Shown piece by piece: positions 8,251 to 51,655 of a stretch of DNA of 64,000 bases (its first letter is position 1; each line of letters begins with the position of its first letter). This stretch comes from Leucoraja erinacea (lineage: Eukaryota): NCBI RefSeq assembly GCF_028641065.1, contig NW_026576843.1, positions 1 to 64,000 on the forward strand, given 5' to 3'. The translations under genes and the position numbers were made by a program. A model generated the notes under the pieces. That model was not told where the DNA came from. It did not search any database and was given only the letters and a program-made list of their open reading frames with translations.

Positions 8251-11200
8251 TTACACACCCGGAGCGGAACCGGAGCAGATTCTCAGCCAGTTTCCATCCC
8301 AAGTGCTGAAGTAAGGATAAAGTTTCTCCGTGAATTTATTCCCAGTGAAGGTGTGGAGATGGGACTTGGTGTCCGCGTCGTAAAATGAAACTGTCCCGGA
8401 CTCGTAACTGAGATAAACTCCCACCCTCCCGGGGATGGGACGGGCGGGGAGAAGGGATGGAGGGGAGTTGAATGCATTCAACTCGTCATCCTGCCGCCTG
8501 ATGCTCCAGAATCCAGTCTCCGGGATCAGTGCGACCCGTCTCTTCCTCTCCACAGACTCTGCGGCGACTCCCAGACTCCAGCGCCGACTCCCCGCCACCT
8601 CCACCTTCCAGTAATGTCTCCCCGATGTGAATCCCTCCGATCCCAGCACACACTCCCAGTATGTAAACCTCTTCCCGGTGTCAGGGAGACGCCTCTCGGT
8701 CCCGGTGTATTTCACCCTCTTCCGATCCTTAGACACCTTGAGCCCCGCATGCGCTGTTTCCACATCCAGGGTGACGGAGACTGGGGGGAGAAGCAGAGAA
8801 TCAGAGAGTCCCCGGGGGTCGGGGGGAGACCCGGGCACAGGCGGCGGACAACTGACACCTTGCCCGGGGTTTCACCCACAACCACATCGGGTGGACAACA
8901 GACATCATTCTAGGAGTTTGTCAACCGGGGAGGAGAGGGGGAATTCAGCGGGTTATCGGGAACGGGAGGGGGCGGGGACGTGCGGACGGGGAAAACGAAT
9001 CCGTAAAATGAGGGTGAACGAGAGATTGCGGGTGAGGATGGAGAAATAAGGCGGGTATTCAAATATCTTGCCAGTAGATGGCGAAGGGGAGGCAGATTGG
9101 AAGATGAGGAGACGGATGTGAGTGGTAATTAGAGGTGGTTATAGAGGATGTAGGGATGTGGGGTTGAGTTGCCGTGATCATACTGAACGGGAGTGGACTG
9201 GACAGGCGAGGCCATCTGCTACTGTTTACTTGCTTTCTATAATGGAGCGTGGATTTGATGCGTCTGTACAACCAAGAACATTCTGATCTGATTGTGAAAC
9301 AATATATGAACTTCACTGGGGGACTTGACAACGTTTTGCATGTAAGATTTCCAGAAATCGAATGCAGGTGGGATCCAAGACGAGTTGGTAAAATGGACTC
9401 ACAATTGGCTTGGTGGTTGGAGGTAGAAGGATGATTTTGCTGCATGGAGGTCTGGGACTGATGGTGTGCAGCAGAGATCGGGGCTGCAACCTTTGCTGTT
9501 TATTTTATGTTTTCATGGGTTTGATGTGAATGTAGGAGGTGTTTGTGGAGAACAGGTAATGTTGTGGATACCAAAGAAGTCTGTCAAAGTCTGCAGCAGG
9601 ATATAGGCTCGATCATCTAAACCTTATTGTCATGCAGGTATATCATTACTGGAGGACACAGTTTTCTTCACACAAAGGGTTGTAAATACCTGGAATATTT
9701 TGCCAGAGGAGGTGGTGGAATCAGATGTAATCACTACATGTAAGAGGCATCGCAATTTAACAAACGAGGTGTAGAATAATATGGTTCTAATGTGGGCAAA
9801 TGGGATTTGTGTGGCTGGGAAAAAAGGTGGACAAGAATGTGATGGGCTGAAGGGCCTGACTCTGTAATGTACAACCATGGCTCTCTGGCTCCAAGAACAC
9901 TGACTGACTGATTATCCACAGCCACCGGGTGTGCAGGGAATTCCAAAGGTTGCCCAGTCTCTGTGTGTAGTAATGTCTCCTTGTCTCTGTCCTAAATGGT
10001 TCAGCCCACATTCTGAGAGGGTTTCTGCTGACTCCAGACCCCTCAGACAGGGGAAACATCCTCCCTGCTTCCAGCCCACTGAAGTCCTGTAAGGACTTTC
10101 ACTGAGATCTCCTCTAATACACCTGAACTTTCGAGTACACAGGCCTAGTCTACGCAATTTCACCCAGCACAACAGACCCATTCTCCCAGGAGCAAGGATT
10201 TGTTCAAGTGCAAACAAACTTCACTCTCTGTCTCTGTGATGCTTCCTCCAGAGTCCATTAATCTTCACGTATAAATATTGCATAAAGATGTCTTAAACTA
10301 AAACAATGGGAAAGGTATTAGTTTTACCTCGTTTGGTGAGATCAGATGTTTCTTTCAATACCGTGTTGTAGAAAAAGGTGCGATCATAGTTTTCACTGGG
10401 CAACGCGCCATCTACCACCGATATTGTTTTGGTTTCATCACTAATCCTGCAAATATTTAACAGCTGCTTAGAAACTGAGCATTAGCTGTTTTAAGCTGTA
10501 CTATAAAAACATACATTGTTTCAGTCAAAAGCATGTCCTACCTGCTCTTGCGACCAGCTTCCTCCTGAAATAAATAAAATACAAATCTCAATAGACTGAG
10601 ATGGATCATGATCCTGACAGCGGGCATTTCACCAAATTGCAACAAAAAACCCTCTGATAATTCCCATTTCCCAACTCTTTGCCGCTGTCACACAGACAGA
10701 AAGTGGATATTGTCATAGAGACATCGAACACGGGGGAAAGCATTAGGAATGTGGATGAAAATAACTGCGAGTATGTAATTTACGAGTAAGACCGGGCAGG
10801 TCGTGGGATTTAATCTGGAGAAGGTGTCAGAGATAATGGGATGGAATATTTTAAGATCAGTGGCGGATTTAAATGGGTGGGGGTTGGAAATATTATCACT
10901 ACTTTTGGGGATACTAAAAATTAAAGCTGAAATATAAGATGGCATTTAATAAATTTCACAAGAAATGCTGTAAACTGAATGTGGAACTAACAGGGTGGCC
11001 TGAAGACAATATTGCAGATAAATTGAAGTTGAAGTGGGATAAATACACAAGGACTCCTGGAATTTGGGGCATTATTGTCGGATGTAGTGAGTAGATGGAG
11101 CAGATGGAACATTGACCCAGTACTGAATTACTGGTAAATGCAGCATTTATTTCTGAAATTGTAACCTGTCACTTTGAGACTATGCACTTCCACTTCACCA

Positions 11201-49900: not shown

Positions 49901-51655
49901 ACTTTCACTTCACCAAAACTGTAGTGTAACCCCTCACCTTCAGAAATATCACACCATCCTTGTGGTCTATCTGTTCCTCTAACTTTGAGAGTTCCTCCTG
50001 AATGGAATTTAAATTCTTTTGTATCTCTTGAAGATTTTTCTCCATTGTTTTTACAATCTTCGCCTCATCTTCCCGGATATCTCCGAGTGCGCGCTGCTCT
50101 TTCTCAGTGAGAATCTGGTGCAGTTCAGCAAACTGGGATGTGGTCTGTGACTGAAGGTTGCGTGACGCTTCCTGTCAGATGAAAGATGAGAATCAATATA
50201 TTATGACACTCTGCTGTGTTTCTTCATGACATGGAAGGTGACATTTGGCAACTGAATCTCTAGTCCTGAAGTGCAGAAATAGGCCCTTCGGCCCAACATG
50301 TCTATGCTGGGCTCTGTACGTATCTACACCAATCCCATTTACCTGTATTTAATCCATAGTTTTCATTACCTTGGCAATTCAAGGGCTCGTCTTGATAATT
50401 CTGAAATATTTGGTGAAAGTAATGTATAAGCACATCATTCCCATTTCCCCAGTACAATTCCCTGCAACCTATTCCATTTCACGTGTCCATTAACACTCAC
50501 TGGACAGAACCAGGTCACCAGAACTAGCAGACAGCAGCAACACTTAGAATGACAGACTTCATAGAGTCATAGAGCAAAGGGGGTTAGATACCGACCAACA
50601 CGTCCCATCTGCGCTATTTCCACTTGTCTGCATTTGGTCACATGGTGCTAAAATCTTCTCTCCACGAATTTGTTCAAATATCTTTTAAATATTGTTATGG
50701 TACCTGAATCAACTACCTCCCCTGGCAGCTCCTTCCATATACCCACGATCAAAGTTGCCCTTAATGTCCATATTAAATCTGTTCCCTCTCACCTTAAACT
50801 TATGCCCTCGCATGCTCGATGCCCCACTCAGGGTAGAAGACTGAGTATTCACCCTGACATTTCGTTTCGTGATATTATACACCTGCAATAGATCATTCTT
50901 CAGACTCCTGCTCTCTAGTGAATGAAGTCCTTGGCTGCCCAACCGCTCCCAAGATCTCGGGTCCTCGACTACTGAGCTCTATAGAGGTGCCCATTATTAC
51001 AGGCATCACTGGGATCAAAACTACACAAAATAATGAAATCGATAGTACAAAGCCTCACCTCAACTCCAGAAATGCTTTCTTTCTGTTTATGCTCCATTTT
51101 CTCGATCGCTAATTTCTTTTCTGTGAGAGATTTGAAAGAAGATTTCATCTGTTCCTGGGGTTGGGTTTCAGATCAGAGAATAAAAATGTCAGACAATAAA
51201 AAAAAATGATTACACAATGAAGTGATCGAAGTTCATTTTGCTTTACCTTGTAGATTTCAACAGCTTCTTTAACCGGCATGAAGCTGTGAGACTTGTGTTC
51301 CCGCCCAGCTGCACAGACCAAACAGATCAGTTTCTTGTCCGTTTCTTGTCCGCTTCAGTTCTTCCTGATGTTCCTCGCAGTGAAGTTTACTTTCCTTCTC
51401 TTTGAGATTCGGGCTCAGTGTTCGAGCTTTCTCAGACAGTCTAACCAAGGCCCGATTCACCTTGAGGGTGCGGTCTGTAAACACCGCTCTACATTCCGGG
51501 CAGGAGTTTCTCGCCTTGCTGTCCCAACTCTGTGCGATACAGGAGCGGCAGAAGTTGTGCCCACACTCCAGTATCACCGGATCGGTGAAGAAATCCAGGC
51601 AGATGGGACAAACTTCCTCCTCGGTTAAACTCTCGACCTGGTGTTTCGAAGCCAT
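46967..51655 (-). pseudogene. TRIM copy 3, frameshifted in the B-box (exon 1 is 409 nt); exons 2-6 intact
   Basis: Exons 51655-51247, 51154-51059, 50171-49938, 49279-49257, 49161-49043, 47496-46967. A net 2-nt loss at ~51346-51351 gives a premature TAA at 51269-51271. Confidence 0.85.

Follow-up and report, generated by a model that had tools for sequence, protein, structure and literature searches.

Diversifying selection at predicted ligand-pocket codons of the B30.2 exon in a skate TRIM family, and its likely exchange with butyrophilins

Introduction

What makes neighbouring TRIM genes of a skate identical, base for base, along one part of the B30.2 domain and different from each other in another? 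We addressed this question with a stretch of 64,000 nucleotides from Leucoraja erinacea (assembly GCF_028641065.1, positions 1 to 64,000 of contig NW_026576843.1, forward strand; hereafter the window), which carries three tandem TRIM genes, each ending in a B30.2 (PRY-SPRY) exon. TRIM-B30.2 arrays under selection have been described from bony fish, reptiles and mammals, and a sequence-only reading of the window had proposed a local three-gene cluster of antiviral receptors whose B30.2 loops diversify rapidly. We find that the three genes belong to a larger family, of which this genome has about 100 exons and which has relatives across rays and sharks, and that 19 of 176 B30.2 codons in it are under strong diversifying selection. 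This evolutionary pattern is real and well supported.

Results

Diversifying selection at 19 codons of the B30.2 exon

A genome search returned 293 candidate loci, of which 150 were scored and the best 103 (at least 67% identity) were taken. The number of close B30.2 exons in the genome is therefore at least 103, nearly all of them on small contigs. Sixteen rows were dropped from the codon alignment, namely ten that were partial or contained stops, three near-duplicates (L054, L067 and L080) and three with aberrant tails (L040, L078 and L098), which left 87 exons of 176 codons. Three pairs of loci differ by no more than two bases and may represent haplotypes.

The likelihood ratio test statistic (LRT) was 1051 for M1a against M2a and 976 for M8a against M8, with a ratio of non-synonymous to synonymous rates (dN/dS, omega) of 5.5-5.7 at 11% of the sites. 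The identical 19 codons reached a posterior of at least 0.95 in M2a, in M8 and in M8 extended by a CpG term, for which the LRT was still 932. When dS was allowed to vary between sites, P(dN>dS) was at least 0.97 for 18 of the 19 codons, while codon 158 lost support; pooled over all 19, dS was 1.0 and dN 5.6. A tree-free count gave proportions of non-synonymous (pN) and synonymous (pS) differences of 0.459 and 0.191 at the 19 codons, i.e. a pN/pS of 2.4 compared to 0.63 in the distant framework. As a control for recombination the exon was divided into four segments with separate trees, each of which returned an LRT of 81-147 and an omega of 3-5, whereas four simulations with the segment trees and no selection gave LRTs of 2.9-60.7 and omega values not above 1.56. 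The selection signal survives the CpG, variable-dS and recombination controls. In the corresponding tests on the RING/B-box, coiled-coil and linker exons, from which locus L082 was omitted, the linker, like exon 2, was not significant, and its omega is about 1 across 38 genes. The sequence-only reading had suggested codon models domain by domain, and these place a dN/dS of about 5.5 at 19 of the 176 B30.2 codons, with weak or no signal in the other exons.

At the selected positions the 87 genes carry 85 distinct pocket strings. The same positions are variable elsewhere: the 19 sites of highest entropy coincide with the selected codons at 15 of 19 in 52 Rhinoraja TRIMs and at 11 of 19 in both 32 stingray TRIMs and the sawfish TRIMs. 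For butyrophilins the overlap is 12 of 19 in 17 stingray proteins, 12-14 of 19 in rays and 13 of 19 in sharks. Because the same positions vary in database proteins of other species, assembly error is disfavoured. More generally, an artefact of assembly, collapsed haplotypes, CpG decay or relaxed constraint might be suspected, given that most copies lie on small unplaced contigs, that 10 of the 103 B30.2 matches are partial or contain stops, that three near-duplicate pairs exist, that some variable codons are CpG-related and that the linker exon is neutral. However, the recurrence of the sites in other species' records, the small effect of the CpG term and the fact that dS is not raised at the selected codons have already largely refuted this explanation, which we consider extremely unlikely.

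The three copies in the window allow a closer look. All motifs quoted in the sequence-only reading are present where it had placed them, on the minus strand. Its estimate of about 28-30 amino acid differences in about 176 residues of B30.2 between copies 1 and 2 agrees with our count of 29 in 176, its count of three differences in the 78-residue coiled-coil exon is correct, and the 46-residue core ([17 protein letters not shown]) is the same in all three copies, bases included. The contrast drawn between B30.2 and coiled coil is real but selective, since these two copies also differ at 19 of the 137 residues of the RING/B-box exon and at 10 residues of the linker exon. At the base level, the B30.2 exon (6-7%) is not more diverged than the introns (mostly 3-8%). 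Between copies 1 and 2 it contains 35.2 non-synonymous and 1.8 synonymous changes, and its unusual feature is that nearly all differences change an amino acid, not that divergence is raised. In the linker exon (window 10328-10446 and its counterparts), 8-12 non-synonymous and no synonymous changes were observed among the three copies.

The selected codons align to the pockets of TRIM21 and BTN3A1

A structural model of copy 2 matches the B30.2 structures of BTN3, TRIM21, TRIM7 and pyrin, BTN3 being the top match in both sequence and fold. The pLDDT is 66 for the whole model and 60-88 for the B30.2 core blocks; residues 129-249 are modelled as a helix (coiled coil), where the Pfam match to TRIM_CC is below cut-off. 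The residues W299, Y328, W381, W383 and E389, five of the twelve TRIM21 residues named in passages of PMC4670481 and bioRxiv 10.1101/2024.01.31.578122, align to selected codons, as do all four BTN3A1 residues (W350, H351, Y352 and W391) named in passages of PMC7348870. For this comparison the TRIM21 residue "A335" was omitted as a probable misprint, and F450 and D452 were placed by counting beyond the end of the alignment. In the union of both sets, eight of 15 pocket residues coincide with selected codons (p=1.6e-5).

In the model, 11 of the 19 sites lie in loops and eight on beta-strands or a bridge. The earlier claim of a rapidly diversifying B30.2 thus holds in that selection is concentrated at the ligand face, but "pocket" describes the sites better than "v1-v4 loops". 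Judged by homology to TRIM21 and BTN3A1 rather than by coordinates, the selected sites probably cluster at the ligand pocket in three dimensions and would have a role in it.

Could the ligands be something other than pathogen-derived? Under the same selection and exchange, the pockets might accommodate small microbial metabolites or host stress products, as BTN3A1 senses phosphoantigens, with the TRIMs acting partly as a reservoir of pockets for butyrophilins. The complete match of the four BTN3A1 residues, the rank of BTN3 as top sequence and fold match and the variability of the same sites in ray and shark butyrophilins are in line with this idea. On the other hand, 83 of the 87 exons with an assigned class belong to TRIMs and four to butyrophilins, no fixed charge is common to the pockets, and the protein-binding pocket of TRIM21 is the same surface. 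We regard metabolite ligands as unlikely.

The driver might also be a conflict unrelated to infection, with endogenous retroelements of the germ line, or a host ligand that is itself diverse, such as the many immunoglobulin isotypes of cartilaginous fish, bound in the manner of TRIM21. Selected sites match the TRIM21 Fc contacts W299, W381 and W383, and relatives of the family carry the database names "A33-like" and "nuclear factor 7" beside "TRIM39-like"; the former two refer to amphibian oocyte proteins. These names are, however, automatic, the position of TRIM21 D355 is mostly serine (65 of 87 exons), and 85 pockets in 87 genes exceed what isotype binding would need. Such a driver appears quite unlikely.

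Probable exchange of B30.2 exons between TRIM and butyrophilin genes

Of the 103 B30.2 exons, 83 were classed as TRIM and 4 (L036, L090, L109 and L111) as butyrophilin, and 16 have no assigned class. Up to 9.5 kb around each locus was examined for upstream exons; within these stretches TRIM exons lie upstream at 83 loci, butyrophilin exons at two and another B30.2 at one, and none was recognised at 17. For two of the latter (L109 and L111), IgV-IgC-TM exons lie further upstream, with the IgV at a distance of about 19 and 22 kb; the locus is the first B30.2 to follow them, and no TRIM exon was found between IgV and B30.2.

Over 363 framework bases the butyrophilin L036 is identical to L031-L035 and L038 (five TRIMs and one locus without assigned class), while its pocket differs from these six loci at 9-11 of the 19 residues. 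Its similarity to the framework-sharing genes stops about 57 bases into the upstream intron. Among TRIMs, the frameworks of L032 and L034 match base for base, although 34 of the 234 bases of the coiled-coil exon are not the same in the two. L032 and L035 share two intronic blocks of 98.4-99.1% identity and differ by 13 bases in the 19 codons, all of them amino-acid-changing, and by none in the other 157; L033, too, is set apart from these two almost exclusively by its pocket. The mean pS over 29 genes is 0.19 in the RING/B-box exon and 0.28 in the coiled coil, compared to 0.10 in the B30.2 framework.

Across species, the ectodomains of batoid butyrophilins form one clade (support of 100 in the Shimodaira-Hasegawa-like approximate likelihood ratio test, SH-aLRT). 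A single clade of their B30.2 domains is rejected by the approximately unbiased test (p-AU 0.0098) in a tree without three Pristis TRIMs, which belong to another B30.2 class, and without shark and electric-ray rows; the frameworks mix with those of TRIMs of the same order. Skate B30.2 domains of both gene classes fall on one side of a branch (support 91); the first cross-species B30.2 tree comprised 15 of the 52 Rhinoraja TRIMs and 17 TRIMs of genome G000. Four sharks have butyrophilins from two old ectodomain lineages whose B30.2 domains nevertheless pair within each species. The B30.2 of a Stegostoma butyrophilin shares 85-90% identity with three butyrophilins of its own species and 88% with a TRIM of that species, compared to at most 82% elsewhere. 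Contiguous segments of the exon conflict more than random partitions (1276 vs. 965±34, and 805 vs. 695±23 without the 19 codons), and shared multi-base patches were found in 44 pairs compared to 1.9±1.6 in 60 simulations. Gene conversion therefore likely homogenises the B30.2 exon across TRIMs and butyrophilins, and we infer that it caused the base-identical frameworks. Tandem duplication, which the sequence-only reading had named as the mode of evolution, is supported as well, but conversion, including exchange between TRIMs and butyrophilins, would also have shaped the exon.

Several points weigh against selection and conversion as read here. The codon models were custom code with fixed relative branch lengths on an IQ-TREE topology, not PAML or HyPhy, and they also return weak signals for the RING/B-box exon (LRT 23) and coiled-coil exon 3 (LRT 31), with omega of about 2-2.5. 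The 19 codons do not include the TRIM21 positions D355, L371 and M330, and an uninformative search for motifs like the interferon-stimulated response element found none in the 3.5 kb above the three ATGs, where 0.2 were expected. Loci were picked for their resemblance to copy 3, a criterion biased towards near-majority frameworks, and only four of 104 branches of the framework tree are starred. When each of 94 butyrophilin records was compared with TRIMs of its own order and with butyrophilins of other orders, the TRIM was the closer one for no more than 58 (10 of 10 in skates, 19 of 19 in stingrays, 28 of 58 in sharks, 1 of 4 in sawfish and 0 of 3 in the electric ray), with uneven TRIM sampling and isoforms counted. 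The segment gain in simulation was 349±38, much of the observed excess is also reached by random partitions, and convergent selection could create some of the shared patches. Finally, the PHI test on the non-selected codons detected no recombination (p=1.0). The segment-tree simulation was rejected as sole proof of conversion, which it overstates given the random-partition control.

Would birth-and-death duplication with selection and little conversion suffice, the near-identical frameworks then stemming from a burst of recent duplications and from rare captures of the exon (one or a few) by butyrophilins? The tree of B30.2 exons is star-like, with internal branches making up 9.8% of its length, recent whole-gene duplicates exist, and the negative PHI result points in the same direction. 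Against this stand the base-identical framework of L032 and L034 despite their diverged coiled coils, the pairing by species of two old butyrophilin lineages in four sharks, and the conflict between contiguous segments. We consider this alternative very unlikely.

One further record is of note: the Cetorhinus butyrophilin P0173 has an ectodomain of the broad lineage of the skate butyrophilins, while its B30.2 falls with a different class of TRIM (Pristis P0030, support 99), so that the exon may have been replaced.

The genes in the window and the wider family

The features of the window are listed in Table 1. Both intact copies match database proteins labelled Leucoraja erinacea (P0054 and P0075), and Pfam finds RING, one B-box (PF00643), PRY and SPRY above cut-off in them. 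The sequence-only reading missed that copy 3 is broken: a net 2-nt deletion next to an 11-nt repeat shifts the frame of exon 1, leads to a stop at 51271 after 128 codons and cuts the B-box. A downstream ATG at 51279 opens a product of 344 residues with coiled coil and B30.2, which is the database protein P0035; a Pfam search of P0035 gave no RING and no B-box. The gene parts of the three tandem units are 93.6-94.7% identical. The stop-to-stop distances are 14.8 and 23.9 kb, and the earlier figure of about 20 kb is an average. The contig extends to 65,449 bases.

Table 1. Coordinates of the TRIM genes, selected codons and repeats in the 64,000-nucleotide window
Feature	Position	Strand	Remarks
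TRIM copy 1, intact, 470 aa	8251..12917	-	six coding exons, AG/GT junctions, open frame; sequence = P0054
Copy 1 coding exons	12917-12507 (RING, B-box), 12420-12325, 11455-11222 (coiled coil), 10564-10542, 10446-10328 (linker), 8780-8251 (B30.2)	-	
TRIM copy 2, intact, 471 aa	23079..27775	-	six exons, AG/GT junctions; identical to P0075
Copy 2 exons	27775-27365, 27274-27179, 26290-26057, 25400-25378, 25282-25164, 23611-23079	-	
TRIM copy 3, frameshifted in exon 1	46967..51655	-	exon 1 = 409 nt; exons 2-6 open
B30.2 exon, copy 1	8251..8780	-	
B30.2 exon, copy 2	23079..23611	-	
B30.2 exon, copy 3	46967..47496	-	
11-nt tandem repeat beside copy-3 frameshift	51331..51352	-	among 103 loci, seen at copy 3 only
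46-aa core, base-identical in three copies	23145..23282; also 8314-8451, 47030-47167	-	
Duplication unit 1	7878..22712	.	units 2 and 3 begin near 22705 and 45417-46692
Selected codon 12, copy 2	23574..23576	-	aligns to TRIM21 W299
Selected codons 24, 26, 28, copy 2 ([10 protein letters not shown] patch)	23526..23540	-	
Selected codons 40-42, copy 2 (TYLEC patch)	23484..23492	-	BTN3A1 W350/H351/Y352, TRIM21 Y328
Selected codon 66, copy 2	23412..23414	-	two residues ahead of TRIM21 D355 position
Selected codons 80-81, copy 2	23367..23372	-	81 aligns to BTN3A1 W391
Selected codons 94, 96, 97, 99, 101, 103, copy 2 (RRNGDKFD patch)	23301..23330	-	TRIM21 W381, W383, E389
Selected codons 158, 160, 162, copy 2	23124..23138	-	flank TRIM21 F450 position

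A broken non-LTR (long terminal repeat) retrotransposon lies in each unit (window 17110-21875, 36794-41651 and 58911-63673), with reverse transcriptase and RNase H pieces recognised by Pfam in unit 1. This stretch is 98.1% identical between units 1 and 3, above the 94.7% over the genes, a hint that conversion or unequal crossing-over has also acted beyond them.

In the wider family, loci L079, L098, L105, L095, L074, L110, L123, L087 and L129 show split matches or stops in the RING/B-box, coiled-coil or B30.2 exons and are pseudogenes or assembly errors. Single members sit on large contigs apart from the unplaced arrays (G000:C2:28905281-28925057, C3:109731042, C22:1840677 and C34:19856163); the C2 member follows butyrophilin exons, three 10-kb flanks on C2 having been searched for TRIM and butyrophilin exons only. 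At least 15 further IgV exons of 37-44% identity were seen in G000 on C578, C1278, C1097, C446, C1171, C399, C1235, C1202, C950 and C1158. Several share contigs with TRIM arrays, which points to other butyrophilin lineages in the cluster. At L046 and L090 (G000:C1278:87188-92898), a butyrophilin B30.2 is followed after 5.2 kb by a second B30.2 exon, with no recognised exon in between. Records from Rhinoraja, Rhincodon, Stegostoma and sturgeon likewise include butyrophilin models with two tandem B30.2 domains (proteins P0009, P0039 and P0040 belong to the same observation), and the sturgeon records P0003, P0022, P0024 and P0032 have three to five tandem B30.2 domains that are 48-55% identical to the skate domain.

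Discussion

The explanation that we favour, and hold to be fairly probable, is a family of some 100 skate B30.2 exons, carried mostly by TRIMs and in some cases by butyrophilins, with strong diversifying selection on 19 codons of the predicted pocket; conversion likely homogenises the rest of the exon, and the TRIMs would bind different pathogen ligands. The evolutionary part of this mechanism is shown or strongly indicated, and the class of ligand is where we extrapolate. Conversion would keep the B30.2 scaffold uniform and carry whole exons as well as short pocket patches from gene to gene across the two classes, TRIMs and butyrophilins, while selection would favour a different pocket in each gene. 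Each TRIM would then likely bind a different pathogen-derived ligand in the cytosol. By analogy to TRIM5, TRIM21 and harbiTRIM, a TRIM dimer would engage a repetitive pathogen structure with its two B30.2 domains, and the RING would ubiquitinate the bound ligand or signal. It is likely that sharks and rays keep a swappable library of intracellular pathogen sensors in this way. The label "antiviral" is applied to the family by analogy.

A bolder proposal, which we put forward tentatively as a possibility, is a germline "shared variable domain" system in sharks and rays, in which one pool of B30.2 exons is exchanged between about 100 TRIM ligases and membrane butyrophilins and pocket patches are reshuffled by short tracts. 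Broken copies such as copy 3 could possibly serve as conversion donors. If the proposal is true, a specificity evolved once would serve both the destruction of targets inside the cell and the display of infection to T cells.

Why does this matter? With so many natural pockets on a scaffold that hardly varies, the family offers a direct way to test what determines B30.2 specificity. What butyrophilins sense outside mammals is an open question according to passages of PMC12841164, to which the proposed exchange is relevant; it also implies that whole-protein or B30.2 trees of elasmobranch butyrophilins can mislead.

Copies 1 and 2 have the features of a class IV TRIM (RBCC-B30.2), with a C3HC4 RING, a B-box, a coiled coil and a C-terminal PRY-SPRY. 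Of 38 intact exons, 37-38 keep the RING zinc ligands unchanged and all 38 keep those of the B-box, and the zinc ligands suggest E3 ligase activity. Positive selection at the predicted ligand surface, one feature of antiviral restriction factors, was found. An identity with finTRIMs was rejected because there is one B-box instead of two and the relatives are skate, ray and shark rather than teleost proteins, and an identity with TRIM21, the cytosolic Fc receptor, because the pocket of D355, W381, W383, W299 and F450 is not kept and its three tryptophan positions are hypervariable.

A literature search, with subscription journals and supplements largely outside its reach, returned no description of such a TRIM-B30.2 family in cartilaginous fish. 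The main text of PMC12841164 contains neither "TRIM" nor "conversion", and the main text of PMC10751288, on the cartilaginous-fish MHC, does not mention TRIM, butyrophilin, BTN or B30.2. The kind of system is known, while the elasmobranch family, its size and the lineage-by-lineage sharing between TRIMs and butyrophilins appear to be undescribed.

How does the skate family compare with known systems? According to passages of PMC3137616, zebrafish btr (bloodthirsty-like, TRIM39-related) and TRIM35/hltr genes likewise combine RING, B-box, coiled coil and B30.2 in multigene families with positive selection on B30.2, and recombination is reported for btr, as we propose for the skate. The number of selected sites is 19 in the skate compared to seven in btr and 11-12 in trim35, and these passages report no exchange with butyrophilins, which we propose here. 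Several btr genes are interferon-stimulated according to parts of 10.1101/693333. Teleost finTRIMs, as described in passages of PMC2657112, are also a large young family with selection at the ligand face of B30.2, but they are teleost-specific, related to TRIM16/25 and carry two B-boxes compared to one in the skate TRIMs; their omega under M2a is about 3.0, compared to about 5.5.

Human TRIM21 and BTN3A1 (passages of PMC4670481 and PMC7348870) share the B30.2 fold (root-mean-square deviations of 1.4-3.0), and the skate variable sites align to their pockets. Both are, however, single genes with fixed ligands, and D355 of TRIM21 is not kept in the skate family. The squamate harbiTRIM locus (passages of the preprint PMC12262214) brings TRIMs, butyrophilins and orphan PRY-SPRY genes together and shows PRY-SPRY recombination. 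It has 0-5 paralogues per species compared to about 100 skate exons, and its main text is without a positive-selection test; antiviral activity has been demonstrated for harbiTRIM. In the zebrafish NLR-B30.2 genes (passages of PMC4852459), conversion homogenises the B30.2 exon and positive selection adds variation, much as proposed here. There the exchange takes place among NLR groups, whereas in the skate it would cross two protein classes, from cytosolic E3 ligases to membrane proteins of the Ig family.

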